Below are positions 3,592 to 51,806 of a DNA stretch of 64,000 nt, in pieces (within the stretch, counting starts at the first letter, position 1; every line of letters starts with the position of its first letter). The notes beneath the pieces are model-generated. The model worked only from the letters and a program-made list of their open reading frames with translations. It was not told the DNA's origin and ran no database searches. The position numbers and the translations under genes are program-made. Origin of the DNA: Octopus vulgaris (Eukaryota); the NCBI GenBank assembly GCA_951406725.2, contig OX597820.1, positions 35,650,001 to 35,714,000 of the forward strand, written 5' to 3'.

Positions 3592-4206
3592 CAGGATGGG
3601 CTAAAAGTCGCGCATCAAAACATTTGACATTTTATCTACATAGGCGCAGGAGTGGCTGTGTGGTAAGTAGCTTGCTAACCAACCACATGTTCAGTCCCAC
3701 TGCGTGGCTTCTTGGGCAAGTGTCTTCTGCTATAGCCCCGGGCCGACCAATGCCTTGTGAGTGGATTTGGTAGACGGAAACTGAAAGAAACCTGTCGTAT
3801 ATATGTATATATATGTATATATGTGTATGTGTGTGTTTGTGTGTGTTTGTCCCCCTAGCATTGCTTGACAACCGATGCTGGTGTGTTTACTTCCCCGTCA
3901 CTTAGCGGTTCGGCAAAGGAGACCGATAGAATAAGTACTGGGCTTACAAAGAATAAGTCCCGGGGTCGATTTGCTCGACTAAAGGCGGTGCTCCAGCATG
4001 GCCGCAGTCAAATGACTGAAACAAGTAAAAGAGTAAAGAGTATTACATTATTATTATTATTGTTATTATTCATTTTGCACATAATATGCAAGTTCGAGTG
4101 TGTTCGTCATTATATTATTTATTTTATTCAATTTTAGAAAAATTGAAGGATGTTTTTGGTAATTCCGCAACACATTGAACTTGTGCGTGACTTTTGGCCC
4201 ACCCTG
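3592..4206. mobile_element. Tc1/mariner-type MITE interrupted by a SINE
   Basis: Imperfect TIRs CAGGATGGGCTAAAAGTCGCGCA (3592) and TGCGTGACTTTTGGCCCACCCTG (ends 4206). TA on the left flank only. Confidence 0.6.
3641..4040 (+). mobile_element. tRNA-derived SINE, family A, near full length (dominant repeat of the window)
   Basis: Head GGCGCAGGAGTGGCTGTGTGGTAAG with degenerate A/B boxes, internal (TA)/(TG) tract, tail GACTGAAACAAGTAAAAGAGTAAAGAG. Many further copies, e.g. 7095, 18261, 22528, 26435, 34230, 40722, 44830-45918, 49468, 61070. Confidence 0.9.
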
Positions 4207-11807: not shown

Positions 11808-12290
11808 CCCGGATTTCTGAGTTTGCATTTAGTAATGCTTTGCCTCGTCAGTAGAATACACGCAGAAGAGAAACATGAATACATATATATTTATAAGCAC
11901 AAAATACGAATACTTACATATACGAACGTATACTTGATAAAATCGTTATTTTATTTTTAAATTAACGATCTTATCCTTATTTATATGAATTTAAATATAT
12001 TTCGTCACTGTATGTACTGCGGCGATATTTTGACCATATCTCACATGGAATTAAGCGGCGGGCATTTCGAACTGGCCGTGATGCATACGTGCATATATAT
12101 GTAGGTATATGTTCGTATATGTAAGTATTCGTATATTGTGCTTATATATTTATGTTTCTCTTTTGTGTGTATTCTACTGACGAGGCAAAGCATTACTAAA
12201 TGCAAAGTCAGAAATCCGGGATCTAGAATTATCCAGTAATTTTTTGCTAGTTTCATCTTGTCTCTTTATTTTCTCTCCGTGTTGATATAT
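11808..12290 (+). mobile_element. Inverted-repeat element with a type I hammerhead (Penelope pLTR-like)
   Basis: Arm 11808-11933 is the reverse complement of about 12105-12220. The plus arm continues past the point where the inverted arm stops. Confidence 0.75.
12171..12229 (+). ncRNA. Type I hammerhead ribozyme motif
   Basis: ATTCTA-CTGACGA-GGC...GTC-A-GAA-ATCCGGGAT-C-TAGAAT. Perfect 6-bp stem I, conserved CUGANGA and GAAA, near-palindromic stem III, AUC cleavage triplet ending at 12223. Confidence 0.7.
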
Positions 12291-12361: not shown

Positions 12362-12403
<42 letters not shown>

Positions 12404-12409
<6 letters not shown>

Positions 12410-12806
12410 CAAGAAGAAAATGGAGGAAATCCAGAGGTAGTATTCATCAGTTGTTAGACGTTATATTATGTGCATTTATTTATTTTTAACATTTCATATA
12501 ATATATGAATACATGTGTAGAATATTAGTAATTTCTAGAATACAGAAAAGAGAAAGAAAAGCAATTTCTTACAGATTTACAATACACTCAAAAGATAGAA
12601 ATATCGTATGGGGTACTGTGACCTCTTGGTTGAAACAGCTGTAAGGAATTGCTCTTTCTCTTTTCTGTATTCTAGAAATTACTAATACTTTAGACATGTA
12701 TTCATATATTATCTGAACTGTTTAAAATAAATAAATAGAAATAATATAACGTCTAACAACTGATGACTAATACCTCTGGATTCCCTCCATTTTCTTCTTG
12801 CCATAT
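12404..12806. repeat. Inverted repeat with ~170-bp diverged arms, Penelope-pLTR-like
   Basis: 12404-12575 is the approximate reverse complement of 12637-12806. The HHR-like remnant CTGTGA...GAAACAGCTGTA lies at 12616-12643. Confidence 0.7.
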
Positions 12807-13114
12807 AAATTAAGGGTAAAACCACTTATGACCCTCGCCTAATTATTATACTCAGTAGGGTAATTGCCACGCAATAACCAACAGTTGTGTATTAATAAGG
12901 TATTCTACCAGCAGTATATTGGATAGATGCTGTCTCTTAGTTGGTTGGATTCACAACCTCTAACTTACTGTGAACTTAATCCATCATCTGTTTTAACGAC
13001 ACCTACAACTGCGGTGCAGGCAGAGTCCACGCTGTTGTAGACTTTATAGAAGTAGACTCGTTCTCAAATAACACTCCTAGTCTCTGACACAATGCAAATA
13101 TTATTGAGCACTCG

Positions 13115-17814: not shown

Positions 17815-18260
17815 TAACAACCATATAAATATGCTGTATGAAATTGTAAAATAAGACGTAAATGAACAAGTTTCCATATTCTATATAGTTTTAATTATTG
17901 CTAATATATATATATATATATTCTCTCAGCGTTTACTATCTTCCTCTCGTTCTGGTCTAACGACCCTTCATGTTTGTTTTCGTTCGGTTTCCTTGTATGT
18001 CTCCACTCATCCGTTTTTGTTTCCATCTTTGACCCTCCATAAATCCTAAATTTTATTTTAGAATTTATGGGAGCAACTGTCTTTGAAGACTCATATTGTC
18101 GTTGAATGCTCGAAAAGATGAGTACATAGACAGCCGAAAGCTCTGTGTTTACTTGTCCTGTTTTCCATTTTTTTCGTACTTAACTCGTTTGTTTACGTAT
18201 TTCATGTTGTTTGCACAGTTGGTGACGCCTTATACCCATATATTCATATATATATATATA

Positions 18261-18458
18261 TTCTTTTATTCGTTTTCAGTCATTTTGACTGCGACCATGC
18301 TGGAGCAGCGCCTTTAGCTGAGCAAATTGGCCCCAGGACTTATTCTTTGTAAGTCTAATACTTATTCTATCGGTATCTTTTGCCGAACCACTAGGTTACG
18401 AGGATGTAAACACACCAGCATCAGTTGTCAAGCGATATTGGGATACGCACACACACAT

Positions 18459-18500
<42 letters not shown>

Positions 18501-18668
18501 GTACAACGGGATTCTTTCAGTTTCCGTCTACCAAATCCACTCGCAAGGCTTTGGTCGGCCCGAGGCTAGATAGTAAAAGACGCTTGCCCAAGGTGCCACG
18601 CAGTGGGACTGAACCTGGAACCATGTGGTTGGATAGGAAGCTATTTACCACACAGCTACTCCTGCGCC
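18261..18668 (-). mobile_element. SINE family A, full length
   Basis: Reverse complement of 3641-4040 over its whole length. Confidence 0.9.
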
Positions 18669-18693
18669 TATATATATATATATGTGTGTGTGT

Positions 18694-23287: not shown

Positions 23288-23350
<63 letters not shown>

Positions 23351-23403
23351 GTTTAAATATTTGTTGTGCAAGATTTTTTATGTGAAGTCGTGAGTTGAAA
23401 CAG

Positions 23404-23891
23404 ATATTGTTATATTTCGGAATGGTCATATTGCCAGTTTAGCCAATAAAAACACACGCACTATATATTTGGTGTTATTTTGCTTCAGTGATATTTATTT
23501 TTTACATTAATCTTAATCTTATTTCGGCCAAAGTTCTTTCGTCACACTCCTGTGACCGCATCAGTGGTCCTTTGTTTTCTTCTCACTTACTTGTGTCTCT
23601 CCTTACTAACCGTCAGCCATTTTGTATTTCTATTGTATGTCTTCATTTGCACATGCTTATATCTCTATGTGCGTCTATGTTTATTTAGTGTGTGTGTGGG
23701 GGGGATGCCTGTAATATTTGTATCTTCTGGTTATATACATTCTTGTAATTTGTATTTTGTTTTTGTTGTTGTTGCTTTTGTTCTAATTTTGTTCATGTGT
23801 TTACATCCACCCATTATTATCATTACATATGCTTGTATGTATGTATAACAACAATATTAGTAATAATAATAATAAATCTAATCGAGAAAAA
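23404..23891 (-). repeat. Penelope pseudo-LTR (3' copy, 488 bp)
   Basis: Reverse complement of 24744-25231. ORF-track translations 23488-23688/24947-25147 and 23552-23848/24787-25083 are identical. Confidence 0.95.
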
Positions 23892-24077
23892 AAAAAAAAA
23901 GAATATACATATACATATATATATATACATACATATACATATACATATATATACATATATACACACATATATACACATATACATATACATATATATACAC
24001 ATATACATATATATAGATATTCATTTCTATTTCTTTAATTACCTGTGTATTTATTATGTTTGCAGGATCCACTATTG

Positions 24078-24806
24078 TCATATGTTGTGGTGTGCGCTAT
24101 TGCTCCATTCTAGTTTTCTATTCAGGCTAGGTTTATTTTCTATTATATGTGTAGCTTCTGTAATTTGTCTAATTGTTGCATCTGTTCTATGTGTGGACAA
24201 TATCTTAATCTCTATGTTATTGATTGATCCCCCGTGTTCTTGTTCGGCGTGTTGGTACAGAATCGATGAGCTTTTACCTTCCTTGAGTTGTCTCCAATGT
24301 TCATTCACCCGCTCACCAATGCTTCTTGCAGTTTCCCCTACGTATGTTACTGTCTTGTTACTGCATCGTCCCTCTATACATCTTATACTATAGACCACAT
24401 TTCTGGCTTTACAGTTCGTTTGTGGGCTAAATCTACATACAGTGCAATAGTTTTCCGTACAGAGAGTTCTACTAAAAGGATAGGTTCTACCAATTATAGA
24501 TCTGATAGGGTTGCCTGGCTTTTCAACAACCTTAATTCTTAGTTTAAGTTTATCTAGGGTCCTTCTAAAGCGGTACGCTAGTTCACCTCCAGGGGTGGTG
24601 TCAACGAACATGACACTCTGGTATTTATGGCTATCATACCAAGAGTTGGCCTTCCTTATTTTCTTTTTTGTCCTTTCTATAGTGTTCCATGACTTGTTCC
24701 TATATAGTGGGCAAATCCCATTCCTATCATTACATAATATATATTTTTCTCGATTAGATTTATTATTATTATTACTAATATTGTTGTTATACATACATAC
24801 AAGCAT
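24078..24806 (-). CDS. C-terminal part of a Penelope-like polyprotein: post-RT linker with Cys cluster plus GIY-YIG endonuclease; the first 21 aa derive from the antisense pLTR
   Basis: Motifs CTENYCTVC...C, NVVYSIRC...C...YVGETARSIGERVNEH...YQH...ITE...PSLN (GIY, YIG, catalytic R/E/N, CCHH). No RT core. The frame is uninterrupted. Confidence 0.9.
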   Translation of the reverse strand: MLVCMYNNNISNNNNKSNREKYILCNDRNGICPLYRNKSWNTIERTKKKIRKANSWYDSHKYQSVMFVDTTPGGELAYRFRRTLDKLKLRIKVVEKPGNPIRSIIGRTYPFSRTLCTENYCTVCRFSPQTNCKARNVVYSIRCIEGRCSNKTVTYVGETARSIGERVNEHWRQLKEGKSSSILYQHAEQEHGGSINNIEIKILSTHRTDATIRQITEATHIIENKPSLNRKLEWSNSAHHNI

Positions 24807-25231
24807 ATGTAATGATAATAATGGGTGGATGTAAACACATGAACAAAATTAGAACAAAAGCAACAACAACAAAAACAAAATACAAATTACAAGAATGTAT
24901 ATAACCAGAAGATACAAATATTACAGGCATCCCCCCCACACACACACTAAATAAACATAGACGCACATAGAGATATAAGCATGTGCAAATGAAGACATAC
25001 AATAGAAATACAAAATGGCTGACGGTTAGTAAGGAGAGACACAAGTAAGTGAGAAGAAAACAAAGGACCACTGATGCGGTCACAGGAGTGTGACGAAAGA
25101 ACTTTGGCCGAAATAAGATTAAGATTAATGTAAAAAATAAATATCACTGAAGCAAAATAACACCAAATATATAGTGCGTGTGTTTTTATTGGCTAAACTG
25201 GCAATATGACCATTCCGAAATATAACAATAT
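24744..25231 (+). repeat. Inverted pseudo-LTR (5' copy)
   Basis: Reverse complement of 23404-23891. Confidence 0.95.
25065..25109 (+). ncRNA. Minimal hammerhead-like motif in the pLTR, variant core (mirror copy at 23526-23570, minus)
   Basis: GGACCA-CTGATGCG-GTCACA-GGAG-TGTGAC-GAAA-GAAC-TT-TGGCC. Perfect 6-bp stem II, weak stem I (CCA/TGG), and C in place of the canonical A9. Confidence 0.55.
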
Positions 25232-31727: not shown

Positions 31728-32044
31728 GTGTTGTTTGGGAGCAAACAAACCAAACAAACCACAACTTTCCATCACATTTAGCCTATGTACAACAATAAAT
31801 TCTATAAGTAAATCAATAACCAACTCCTAAATATGTAACTAAAGAGCGACCAAACATTTATAGTCATAGATTTTATTCTCTACAGTCTTCCATAGTATAA
31901 ATAAAAGTGAAAGATTAATAACCACATTCATTCAATCTAAATATAAGCAGGATTAAACACTAACTTTAAAAGTAAACTACAACAAGAAACACATAAATCT
32001 ATGTACATTTGTATCAGTATTAATAGGAAACCTACAATAACTAG

Positions 32045-32199
32045 CATTATTTAGATCCTATATATTTGACGGATATTTGTCCTCATCTTGCTTGTTGTTA
32101 ACACAACGTTTCGGTTGATATACCCTCCAGCCTTCATCAGGTGGCTCGGGGAAATTTCGAGTCTGGGTTCTCATTCCTAGGGTATTTTTTTATGTTGTT

Positions 32200-32238
<39 letters not shown>

Positions 32239-32714
32239 ACTATTATTCAGGTCAATACCTGGAATCGAACTCGGAATCTTGGGGTTTGTAGCCCGCGCTC
32301 TTAACCACTACGCCACATGCCCGTGGGTGTAGTGGTTAAGAGCGCGGGCTACTAACCCCAAGATTCCAAGTTCGATTGCAAGCAGTGACCTGAAGAAGAA
32401 GAAGAAGAAGAAGAAGAAGAAGAAGAAGAAGAAGAAGAAGAAGAAGAAGAAGAAGAAGAAGAAGAAGAAGAAGAAGAAGAAGAAGAAGAAGAAGAAGAAG
32501 AAGAAGAAGAAGAAGAAGACGAAGAAGAAGAAGAAGATGGAGAACAACAACAACAACAACAATAATAATAATAATAATAATAACACCTGATGAAGGCTGG
32601 AGGGTATATCAGCCGAAACGTGGTGTTAACAACAAACAAGATGAGGACAAATATCCGTCAAATGTAAATAAGGTAAATAATGTACATAATTCCTCATCTC
32701 TTAAATATAGAACT
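32045..32714. mobile_element. Head-to-head dimer of a tRNA-headed, hammerhead-tailed SINE
   Basis: Minus copy 32045-32322 and plus copy 32323-32714. Each has a tRNA-like head, a triplet microsatellite and an HHR. 12-bp direct repeat CTACAATAACTA at 32032-32043 and 32715-32726. Confidence 0.88.
32582..32627 (+). ncRNA. Minimal type I hammerhead motif (cleavage triplet mutated to GUG)
   Basis: AACAC-CTGATGA-A-GGCTG-GAGGGTATAT-CAGCC-GAAA-CG-TG-GTGTT. Confidence 0.8.
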
Positions 32715-33166
32715 CTACAATAACTAAATTATATACTAAACAGCGACCAATATTTAAGCCCATACAAAAATTAATCCCTCCAGTCTTCCATAGTTACTAC
32801 TCTAACAGAAAGTGAAAGCTTTATTTCAATTCTCTCCATAACAAAACACAATCGAATTTAATTTAACGAATAATATAATGATCCTATTGAAATACATTAT
32901 TTCAAAATACAAAAGTTAATAGCAAAAACACTACATACTCATTAATATATATTACCCTTATAAACTTTAATGTAAACTTACCAGTAACTAATAGAAACGT
33001 TAAGTTTATTAGATAAGAACTAATAAAAGTATACTTGTAATTAAGTATTATTATGAAAGCTTGCTACGATTAAAGCTAAATTAAAACTGTTTAAATGTAT
33101 GTATGTATGTATGTATGTATGTATGTATGTATGTATGTATGTACTTATGTATGTATGTATGTATAC

Positions 33167-36209: not shown

Positions 36210-37111
36210 GGCTCCCTGCATTCGCACAGTGCCATGGTACTCAACAGTACTTAACACAACGCAGGGCTACCCTACGGCTGTTTACACGGTGCAGTGGCAC
36301 ACTACGACTTCCCATACAGCGCAATGATAACCTACGCTTCTTCATACAGCGGTGTAGTGCCCTAAGCCTCTTCACACAGCGCCATGATACCCAAGGCCTC
36401 TTCACATAGCGCCGTGGTACCCAACACCTCCTCACATGGCGCCCTGCTACCCTACGCCTCCTCACATAGCGCAGAGGTACCCTACGCCTTCTCAAATAGC
36501 ACCCTGCACCTTCCGCCTCCTCACACAACGCAGAGGTACCCTACACCTTCGCACACAGCGCCGTGGTACCCCACGTCTCCCCACATAGCATAGAGTTACC
36601 CTACGCACTATCACACGGCGCCATGGTACCCCACGCCTTAACACACAGTGCAGAGGAACCCTACGCCTTCTCACACAACGTTGTAGGAACTTGTGCCTTC
36701 TCACACAGAGCGGGGGTACCCTACGCCTCCTCACACAGCGCCCTGGTAGCCTATGCCTCCTCTCACAGTGCAGTGGTACACTACGCCTCCTCAAAGAGGG
36801 TCGTGATACGCTACACCTCCTCACAGAGCACAGTGGTAAAGTATGTCTCTTCATGCAGCGCCGTAGTATCGTGTGATTCTTCACACAGCGCAGTGGCACC
36901 ACACAATCCTTCACACAACGGACTGGTACTCTATAGTACTTTATACAACACAGAAGTACCCTATGACACCTCACAGAAAGCAGTGGTACCTGCAGTCCTA
37001 TACTCAGCTCAGTGCAGTGGTACTCGATAGATCTCCACACAGCGCAGAGGTACCTTATGATTCTTCACACAGGGTTTCCCTGTGACACTTCACATAATGC
37101 AGTGGGGTACC
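36210..37111. repeat. GC-rich minisatellite, 30-bp unit, about 30 diverged copies
   Basis: Consensus approximately CCCTACGCCTCCTCACACAGCGCAGTGGTA. Confidence 0.92.
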
Positions 37112-41774: not shown

Positions 41775-41817
<43 letters not shown>

Positions 41818-41829
41818 TTTACTTTATAC

Positions 41830-42014
41830 AGTTCTATATTTAAGAGATGAGGAATTATGTACGTTATTTACATTTCACGGATATTTGTCCTCATCTTGTT
41901 TGTTGTTAACACAACGTTTCGGCTGATATACCCTCCAGCCTTCATCAGGTGTCTTAGGGAAATTTCGAACCTGGCTTCACATTCCTAAGGTATTTTTCGA
42001 TGTTGGTGATATCA

Positions 42015-42080
<66 letters not shown>

Positions 42081-42272
42081 TCACTGCCTTGAATCGAACT
42101 CGGAAACTTGGGGTTAGTAGCCCGCGCTCTTAACCACTGCGCAAAATGCCGCGCTATTAACCCAGGTTCGAAATTTCCCCAAGACACCTGATGAAGGCCG
42201 GAGGGTATATCAGCCGAAACGTTCTGTTAGCAACAAACAAGATGAGGGCAAATATTCGTCAAATGTAAATAT

Positions 42273-42275
<3 letters not shown>
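41830..42275 (-). mobile_element. tRNA-headed hammerhead SINE with an inverted partial copy at its 5' end
   Basis: Full minus copy 41830-42150 (head, (AAT)n, HHR, tail). The inverted piece 42159-42275 carries a second HHR and lacks the last ~30 nt. Confidence 0.88.
41908..41953 (-). ncRNA. Minimal type I hammerhead ribozyme motif, intact core
   Basis: GACAC-CTGATGA-A-GGCTG-GAGGGTATAT-CAGCC-GAAA-CG-TT-GTGTT. 5-bp stem I, 5-6-bp stem II, palindromic AACGTT stem III, GUU triplet. Confidence 0.85.
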
Positions 42276-42308
<33 letters not shown>

Positions 42309-44829: not shown

Positions 44830-45918
<1,089 letters not shown>

Positions 45919-46127
45919 ATATATATATATATATACATATATTGTATTTGTGCAGACTTGGGTGTGTGGTTAGAACTTTGCACCTGAACCATATGGTTCT
46001 GCGTTCAGTCCCGCTGTATAGAGCTTTGGACACGTGTCTTATATTATAGCCTCGAGCTGACCAAAGCCTTATGAGTGGAATTGGTTGACGGAAACTGAAA
46101 TAAGCACACGCGTACGTACGTGCGTGC

Positions 46128-50978: not shown

Positions 50979-51308
50979 AGACAGTGACCTGAAACAAGTC
51001 TATAATCAGCAGCCAAGCTGGGTTTATAAAACCACAACCACAACACACAAGTCATTTACTTTCCATGCTGTGTGCGATTCTACTCTAAACTGATCGTTTC
51101 TCGTTTACTCTACTACAATTCGCAACAAGTTTATTTTGTTGTTTCATTCGTCTTACCCATATATATCGTACCTTCGTATATATAACTCGCCTTCTATACT
51201 ACGATCTTACTAAAACCGCAAGTTGGAGCTTTTATTTTCATCATAAAACCACTATATTGAATTTTATTTGGAAACGTGACAGCTAACATATATTCTCCTA
51301 ACACAACA

Positions 51309-51806
51309 ATGAAGGGTTTTCCTTGTATCGACGCTTTACCAGCATCTCTCTCTGCTGTTGACGAAAACATGCCGTTGCCAAACGAACAGGGCGCACCTGT
51401 AAAATGTGGTCATCTCTACCTAATCATAGGGCCAAACAGACAACTGGCCGTTTTTGTCAACGTCTACTGGAGCGGCTTCGAACACTTTGCTGTCATCTAT
51501 CGGGACAAGAAATTCTGTAATGCTTCCGCTTTCATCCGTATCAAGAGATGTGTGGTGACCAAGGATTCACAGAAAGGAAATCGCTTTGTTATAATTCCGA
51601 ATAACAGCGAAGGTTGTACCATTGTATTTGAGTGTGAAACCGAGCGTGAAGCAGATGAATGGGTGAAGTCCTTGTCGTATAAATCTTACAAAAATAATCG
51701 TTGCTGCCTATCGAAACCCTCTATCGTACCCGAAATGACGGTACCCATACCAAAGTCTCCTGTTCTACCAACTCTGAAAGAATATGACGAAGATGAAGAT
51801 GTTTGA
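51309..51806 (+). CDS. Small, apparently intronless PH-domain protein (165 aa)
   Basis: Non-repetitive ORF, ATG in context ACAACAATGA. PH hallmarks VKCGHL (beta1), FAVIYRD, IRIKRCVV, NRFVII and IVFECETEREADEWVKSL (C-terminal helix with the conserved Trp). Acidic tail SPVLPTLKEYDEDEDV. Confidence 0.88.
   Translation: MKGFPCIDALPASLSAVDENMPLPNEQGAPVKCGHLYLIIGPNRQLAVFVNVYWSGFEHFAVIYRDKKFCNASAFIRIKRCVVTKDSQKGNRFVIIPNNSEGCTIVFECETEREADEWVKSLSYKSYKNNRCCLSKPSIVPEMTVPIPKSPVLPTLKEYDEDEDV

Follow-up and report, generated by a model that had tools for sequence, protein, structure and literature searches.

Structure of the repeat at 42 kb

We analysed a window of 64,000 nucleotides from Octopus vulgaris (contig OX597820.1, positions 35,650,001 to 35,714,000 of the forward strand), to which all coordinates refer. 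At about 42 kb it contains a minus-strand monomer of ~330 nt (42151-41826), joined head to head to a shorter inverted copy. Along its own strand the monomer runs from a tRNA-like head through an (AAT)n linker, a spacer, a hammerhead and a 3′ hairpin to its end at 41826-41830. The features of the locus are as follows:

41783-41814 (no strand): left (TA)n flank, from the sequence
41826-41864 (-): tail of the type known from Penelope-like elements (PLEs), present on the monomer and missing from the stub (self-BLAST; loose ends of the family)
41845-41896 (-): 3′ hairpin with 8-bp strands 41896-41889 and 41852-41845 (fold, z -2.1; covariation)
41908-41953 (-): minimal type-I hammerhead motif (descriptor scan, fold)
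41954-42016 (-): conserved spacer, the 5′ part of a pLTR-like 3′ module (aligns with the 32 kb minus-strand copy; covered in four public runs)
42017-42076 (-): (AAT)n linker, a feature of the family (sequence; loose ends behind 42004 are (ATT)n in four of four runs; (AAC/AAT)n and (GAA)n at 32 kb)
42077-42151 (-): tRNA-like head with Pol III type-2 A and B boxes (A/B-box scan; weak Rfam tRNA match in the 32 kb copy only)
42152-42158 (no strand): head-to-head junction, 7 bases unassigned (sequence)
42159-42271 (+): inverted, 5′-truncated, tail-less copy (the stub) with spacer, hammerhead (core 42188-42223) and 5′ hairpin strand (self-BLAST)
42279-42306 (no strand): right (TA)n flank, from the sequence

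The heads are called tRNA-like after their A and B boxes, scored against the Pol III box consensus. In the 42 kb head the A box (42144-42134) has one mismatch and is accompanied by a private T4 run, and the B box lies at 42099-42091. The A/B-box pair, with its one mismatch at 42144-42091, is exact at 32315-32262 in a second copy of the repeat, and shuffling gave 0.1 exact matches per shuffle. The sense strand of the 32 kb copies contains no T4 run in the same box scan, which has low power. Because of the A-box mismatch and the private T4 run, the predicted promoter of the 42 kb copy is probably damaged. The best Rfam tRNA score was 14.3 bits (E 7.3, cut-off 29), for a 32 kb copy; the Rfam tRNA model matched neither the 42 kb head nor the heads of its relatives, and ARAGORN called no tRNA in any of these.

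A complete minus-strand monomer with an intact hammerhead core at 41908-41953 and a GUU triplet had been reported in a preliminary description, and both the sequence and a descriptor scan bear this out. The motif spans 41948-41913 and comprises CUGAUGA, stem II, GAAA-CG-UU and a 5-bp stem I (core 41948-41942; GAAA 41920-41917; a palindromic CG in place of stem III; GUU 41915-41913). Across the window the scan found four hammerheads, namely that of the 42 kb monomer, two in the arms of a GIY-YIG element and one at 11739-11713, and no strict match occurred in 30 shuffled windows. No Rfam hammerhead family reached its gathering score in the element or its relatives. Among the variants listed for four public runs, none falls at 41913, and the free core position 41944 is variable.

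Downstream of the hammerhead, the A/C-rich loop of the 3′ hairpin contains both places at which short copies end (41864 and 41854, see below), the latter immediately preceding the 3′ strand of the hairpin; we infer that this loop is a region where reverse transcription starts. The loop also holds a 9-nt unit (41854-41871; 32668-32689) that occurs in two or three copies across the family, with a single open frame kept. On ORF inspection the SINE is non-coding, with no RT or GIY-YIG ORF and no long protein.

The stub adjoins the 5′ end of the monomer and covers the hammerhead, as the preliminary description had said: in self-BLAST, 42159-42271 (+) matches 41977-41865 of the monomer with 92.9% identity over 113 nt (E 4e-44). 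It does stop short of the 3′ end, at a distance slightly greater than the ~30 nt first given, namely 35 nt from 41830 and 39 nt from the family end at 41826-41827 defined by loose ends. The stub's own hammerhead keeps the core and fails the scan through a stem-I mismatch. Monomer and stub differ at 8 positions in 106 nt and have no derived change in common that would mark a single insertion event at 42 kb. On the left side, ~12 unassigned non-TA bases lie beside the (TA)n, and no target-site duplication other than (TA)n was found in the flanks.

A second inverted pair at 32 kb

A sister locus at 32 kb has the following features:

32032-32043 (left) and 32715-32726 (right) (+): 12-bp direct repeat, a candidate target-site duplication around the whole pair (flank comparison)
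32045-32322 (-): tail-less arm with a complete head and exact A and B boxes (self-BLAST, alignment, box scan)
32323-32714 (+): tailed arm, with a head lacking its first 6 nt, an expanded (GAA)n linker, the spacer deleted, a hammerhead with GUG, a 9-nt extra unit and the tail (alignment)

The two arms join head to head with a gap of 0, giving a junction gap of 0-7 nt over both loci. A repeat like the 12-bp one arose in 1 of 2000 shuffles, for windows that were picked after the match was seen. Both 32 kb hammerheads retain the core and fail the strict scan through changes. The miRNA matches at this locus merely reflect the inverted heads, and its flanks (31827-31896 and 32724-32794) form an old tandem duplication, 75% alike, with a period of about 210 bp.

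For INDEPENDENCE of the 32 kb and 42 kb loci, the 2-kb flanks have in common only non-collinear matches (63-82% identity), which fall in a dispersed repeat and in microsatellites. The flanks are thus unrelated, as the preliminary description had noted together with the (TA)n setting of the 42 kb locus, and we rejected the idea that the 42 kb locus arose from the 32 kb one by segmental duplication. The earlier view that both loci consist of a full copy plus a stub needs amending: one tail per pair is indeed common to them, but at 32 kb the tail-less arm has the complete 5′ end and the tailed arm is internally deleted. Since the head-complete arm lacks the tail there, the invariant is one tail per head-to-head pair (two of two loci in the window), not a full copy with a stub, and truncation can affect either arm.

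Other features of the window

The hammerhead at 11739-11713 (-) has a CUGACGA core and GUU and is unrelated to the other two kinds; it is probably what is left of a further PLE end that an inverted-repeat element truncates at about 11808. MITE-like elements occupy 11808-12220 and 12400-12810, with terminal inverted repeats of 69 nt (96%) and 158 nt (91%), respectively, and the second abuts (TA)n. Abundant two-part SINE-like families, with close copies in both orientations and no hammerhead in the scan, lie at 498-738, 3633-4037, 18259-18678, 44830-46105 and elsewhere, and account for a large part of the window. A single open frame of 181 codons at 51261-51806 (+) encodes a PH domain (Pfam E 2.3e-05) and is perhaps a host exon or retrocopy, and a degenerate tandem repeat at 36221-37072 has long open frames on both strands.

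Copies of the family end at discrete 3′ positions

Contigs of 4 public runs, of 24 listed, were aligned to the 3′ part of the SINE, of which 41012, 28026, 21679 and 33205 per run fitted, figures that do not represent copy number. Loose ends leading into diverse flanks were found at 41826 (232/257/267/301 contigs in the four runs), 41827 (166/161/180/219), 41854 (234/208/216/265) and 41864 (145/146/158/182), the last of which may be inflated by an adjacent private mismatch at 41863 that can gather clips. These are four of the best 6 places, which are followed by 1083 further rows; of the remaining two, 41874 corresponds to the 9-nt extra unit and 42004 to the (ATT)n linker. Ends therefore cluster at the full end and at 28 and 38 nt short of it. 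The family is dispersed, with hundreds of distinct flanks in the runs. Among the 15 joints listed, 4 change strand, one of them in three runs. The contigs are too short to tie a short end to an inverted partner or to show a head beyond the (ATT)n linker.

Two discrete 3′ ends about 30-40 nt apart are seen in the run contigs, in the related family B and in the stub. The length of the tail differs by family (28/38, about 33-36 or 51-60 nt), the last value being that of families C and D (3 loci).

One tail per inverted pair in family B

One frame through the SINE module is open, and its translation was used as a search query. Records with 78-85% amino-acid identity to this translation are named for Octopus bimaculoides and O. 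sinensis. The full set comprised 147 records (30 from one search and the best 120 of 282 from another, overlaps removed), nearly all of them spurious ORFs over copies of the repeat, and most belong to family B (about 50% identity). After 21 records without the core had been dropped, the last copy in the 126 kept ended at codons 39-43 in 91, 29-33 in 28, 34-38 in 2 and at or before codon 26 in 5 (3 of these being family A proteins), in a score ranking that favours full ends. The short end of family B thus lies about 11 codons before the full end. Frameshift was rejected as its origin (0 of 28).

Antisense arms were present in 32 records, 24 of them callable. The tail was on the forward arm only in 17, on the inverted arm only in 4, on neither in 3 and on both in none (Fisher p 0.0033), so exactly one tail is seen in 21 of the 24 callable pairs, in a count from which stop codons in the antisense frame hide some tailed inverted arms. 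"Neither" refers to an ungapped test, and two of these three pairs show a shifted tail on the inverted arm by eye. The exception is the family A record P0008, which reads tailed on both arms. In family B the module also occurs as partial tandems, with a maximum of 4 per record.

Three Octopus gene models (P0003, P0083 and P0005, annotated as dystrobrevin beta isoform and uncharacterised cysteine-rich protein) start with the translated repeat and all depart from it at one position, where a donor-like GTAAAT hexamer adjoins; this reflects either exonisation or an annotation artefact.

Related families conserve the module and its structure

Further relatives came from G001. A noisy A/B-box compatibility scan on proteins (61 and 22 chance matches per set) served only as a lead to locus L001, the one locus obtained in the P0144 scan of eukaryote-like contigs in G001. 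This locus holds a solitary monomer of family B in which the A and B boxes are exact and both hammerhead and tail are present. Contig C16 of G001 gave 5 hammerhead matches in three loci, with 0 in the reversed control. Together with C52 and C61, this contig (0.4-0.5 Mb each, in a prokaryote genome bin) contains microsatellites and animal-type repeats, and the three are likely host contamination.

In family C, locus L022 pairs an arm that has a head but no tail with a truncated arm that has the tail; a 12-bp direct repeat (1 of 1000 shuffles) encloses the two, and the A and B boxes are exact. Two loci represent family D, whose B box has one extra base: L021 is a headless inverted pair with one tail and no duplication, and L023 comprises a partial copy, a headed tailed copy and a tailed inverted stub. 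L023 is framed by a 10-bp repeat (8 of 1000 shuffles) and contains a direct repeat; one of its outer ends is tailed, and an inner tailed copy is also present. Overall, a candidate target-site duplication of 10-12 bp occurs at three of six loci (32 kb, L022 and L023) and is absent from the 42 kb locus, L021 and L001. In the heads of the four families the positions of the boxes are conserved and the middle is divergent, and in families B, C and D the head is joined to the module without a microsatellite.

For stems I and II together with the hairpin, 91% of 115 cells are paired, with 9 two-sided changes, a result reached in 0 of 500 shuffles and compared with 31-44% in slid controls; this count comes from 7 related sequences with the structure read from the first, and their relatedness inflates it. 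Stems I and II covary in the four families, and in the hairpin 90% of cells are paired, one pair with a two-sided change. Free folds of the whole module were no better in the relatives than in shuffles.

A GIY-YIG element in the window and the search for a partner

One further element of PLE type lies in the window:

23350-25231 (-): GIY-YIG PLE fragment with 488-nt inverted arms (100% identical), a distinct hammerhead variant and, on one side, an extension reaching up to 54 nt (self-comparison, Pfam, descriptor scan)

The Pfam match has an E of 0.001, below the cut-off, and a PDB search with the fragment returned nothing significant. A cysteine cluster precedes the nuclease motif (element 23404-25231), a feature that the available part of PMC8557442 describes for the Neptune and Nematis clades. 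Because its arms are identical, the element is either very young or homogenised, and it shows that PLEs act in this genome. We rejected it as the partner of the SINE, to which it bears no likeness (best BLAST E 0.72) and from which it differs in its hammerhead. The preliminary description had seen the same asymmetry here as at the SINE loci. The layout and the one-sided extension do agree, but the extension reaches 54 nt rather than ~30 nt and the arms are unrelated to the SINE. Its further conclusion that a shared integration mechanism rather than chance produced all three holds for PLE-type integration; because of the different hammerhead and the lack of likeness to the SINE end, the GIY-YIG element is included at that level only.

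Among the matches listed, no long ORF opens with the frame of the module (longest 371 aa), in searches that are blind to non-coding pLTRs. G001 contained no GIY-YIG match, exact-pattern hammerhead scans of metagenome, prokaryote and viral collections gave nothing, and neither did protein scans of metagenome and viral contigs.

Interpretation

The observation is real, independent and of PLE type. According to the parts of the literature available, in PLE insertions a copy often has an inverted 5′-truncated partner, and one end bears a tail of 30-40 bp (PMC8557442, PMC3846280). The preliminary description had expected sharp 3′ end points under a Penelope-type mechanism, and this is largely what we see: the best-supported ends are discrete in four runs, those of family B are bimodal, and inverted pairs have one tail. 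The objections it had anticipated, random stub ends and a segmental duplication, give way to the discrete ends and the unrelated flanks.

Considering the observed anatomy, discrete ends, single tails, direct repeats round three pairs and recurrence of the design in relatives, we think it likely that the repeat is a SINE transcribed by Pol III and copied in trans by a Penelope-like RT/GIY-YIG protein. Copying by a PLE is suggested because the head-to-head tail-less layout is common to three related repeat families. With somewhat less assurance, we lean towards a class of PLE-driven SINEs abundant in octopus, with at least four families that differ in their tRNA-like heads and share a homologous hammerhead-hairpin-tail module; the one-tail rule would then reflect integration at two ends, with both cut strands used by a PLE dimer as primers, each at a different start site on the RNA.

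The model, which covers transcription, partner, dimer and ribozyme state, would run as follows. Pol III would transcribe the SINE from its tRNA-like head. A PLE protein, probably dimeric, may then bind the 3′ module and cut both strands of AT-rich or microsatellite DNA, a step modelled on PLE biochemistry (PMC11167929, in part). In the available text of that work, cutting and extension of both strands are described for the anole PLE protein, a predicted dimer with a preference for ATT that works without hammerhead cleavage; two internal starts lie in an AC-rich stem-loop, and the distance between them is the tail (PMC11167929). In the octopus SINE, each cut end would prime a cDNA, one at the distal start, keeping the tail, and one 28-38 nt further upstream, at the internal start within the hairpin loop, losing it. 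The two cDNAs, either possibly stopped early, would become joined head to head. Two RNA copies, or two passes on one RNA, would be required, because both arms repeat one 3′ module. As a monomer, the hammerhead of the SINE is probably inactive, because cutting there would part the head from the 3′ signal; it may belong to an RNP-binding fold. In PLEs the hammerhead is of a minimal form with a palindromic stem III, and single copies are poor at cleaving (PMC4209133, in part). The octopus SINE is consistent with all these points from the PLE literature.

An unlikely alternative keeps the mobilisation by PLEs and denies the head a working Pol III promoter: RNA would come from read-through or tandem copies and be excised through the action of hammerhead pairs, a route put forward for non-LTR retrozymes and SM-alpha. 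Partial module tandems in family B (up to 4 per record), the direct repeat in L023 and the weak tRNA score of the head fit this idea, and retrozymes are argued to be non-autonomous PLE derivatives in the part available (10.64898/2026.07.22.740005). Yet three families have exact A and B boxes at workable spacing, four conserve the positions of the boxes, and the window copies are monomers or inverted pairs, never tandem arrays. Cleavage would also separate the head from the 3′ signal, and in vitro the anole PLE mainly uses uncleaved RNA (PMC11167929, in part).

It is improbable that two separate elements are involved, a short tRNA SINE ending in (AAT)n and solo PLE ends repeatedly inserted in its microsatellite. 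Microsatellites are indeed preferred targets of PLEs, and ATT is where the anole enzyme cuts (PMC8557442 and PMC11167929, each in part), and run contigs reach the (ATT)n linker without showing a head beyond it. Against such a composite, self-BLAST finds linker and module behind all three heads of the window and no solo head, both heads at 32 kb meet at the inverted junction within a single 12-bp repeat, and the heads of families B, C and D adjoin the module with no microsatellite between.

We give equally little weight to mobilisation by a LINE (e.g. R4/Dong or RTE, abundant in octopus) with the stub arising from twin priming or later fold-back repair, for which one can cite that LINEs are the known partners of mollusc SINEs (PMC11481361, in part). 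The setting of the 42 kb locus in (TA)n without a clear duplication also agrees with it. However, twin priming on a single RNA inverts the 5′ part and leaves the 3′ module unrepeated. The two fixed 3′ ends, the one-tail rule and the minimal hammerhead all match PLEs, and the element shows neither poly(A) nor a tandem 3′ end of LINE type. That the arms are chance neighbours, or products of segmental duplication or misassembly, can be virtually dismissed. The window is SINE-dense, and in another family, too, copies of either orientation occur close together; but the arms differ at 8 of 106 sites, the flanks are unrelated, only 0-7 nt separate the arms at the two loci, and other genomes show the layout again.

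We thus retain a SINE copied by a Penelope-like protein as the preferred reading. SINEs are described as passengers of LINEs, and a tRNA-headed SINE using the telomerase-like Penelope RT would, if true, add a new kind of partnership. It would likewise account for part of the dispersed minimal hammerheads of octopus and of its unclassified SINE families; 893 of the 900 octopus SINE families with recent activity are unclassified (PMC13282606, in part). Short and present in very many copies, the repeat offers a large natural record of PLE integration products, in which the one-tail-per-pair rule makes a two-strand, two-start model countable; how PLE inverted repeats and tails form is stated to be an open question in the available part of PMC8557442. 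The module also represents a candidate cis-signal of roughly 170 nt for PLE-mediated insertion of cargo RNA.

Comparison with known systems

In titles and the openings of abstracts we found no description of a tRNA-headed SINE with a PLE end and a PLE insertion signature; the family may be catalogued under another label, for instance in Repbase or Dfam. The word "hammerhead" is absent from PMC13282606 (text and supplement) and PMC8967140 by term look-up in the parts available, the term matches in the available part of PMC10886601 fall in its reference list only, and three short motifs from the window have no match in the supplement of PMC8557442. For the giant squid, 235 hammerhead matches are counted only, in the portion available of PMC6962438.

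With GIY-YIG PLEs (Penelope/Poseidon, Neptune, Nematis) the SINE has in common the minimal type-I hammerhead with palindromic stem III in a terminal module, and, as described in the accessible parts of PMC8557442, PMC3846280, PMC4209133 and PMC11167929, the inverted 5′-truncated copy, the one-sided tail, partial tandems and AT-rich or microsatellite targets; the 8-12 bp duplications of PLEs have candidate counterparts at three of the six SINE loci. Unlike PLEs, it is about 330 nt long, has no RT or endonuclease ORF and carries a tRNA-like A/B-box head where they have their own promoter and ORF. tRNA-derived SINEs (tRNA-CORE, tRNA-Deu and others of molluscs) resemble it in their A/B-box head, shortness, dispersal, thousands of contigs per run and CpG decay, but the repeat differs from these in its PLE-type rather than LINE-derived 3′ end, its two fixed 3′ ends and its head-to-head pairs. 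Only LINE partners are listed for mollusc SINEs in the available part of PMC11481361, which makes no mention of Penelope.

Animal non-LTR retrozymes and non-autonomous PLEs (MRC1; rotifer genes moved between pLTRs) are likewise non-coding, hammerhead-bearing and thought to borrow PLE proteins (10.64898/2026.07.22.740005, PMC7761336, PMC8557442, PMC3846280, all in part). They form tandem arrays yielding circular RNA or are plain PLE derivatives, whereas the SINE copies of the window are inverted pairs, with partial tandems only in families B and D; the word "tRNA" does not occur in the available part of the retrozyme preprint (10.64898/2026.07.22.740005). The nearest precedent is Schistosoma SM-alpha/Sj-alpha, a short repeat in which a Pol III-type promoter is followed by a type-I hammerhead (PMC6765202 and PMC8490949, each in part). 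Compared by description only, it differs in consisting of tandem units freed by an active ribozyme, and no PLE tail, inverted pair or partner is described for it in the parts available. The architecture is already known for PLEs, and the combination of Pol III promoter and hammerhead from SM-alpha; the octopus repeat is best filed as a SINE with a probable Penelope-like partner.
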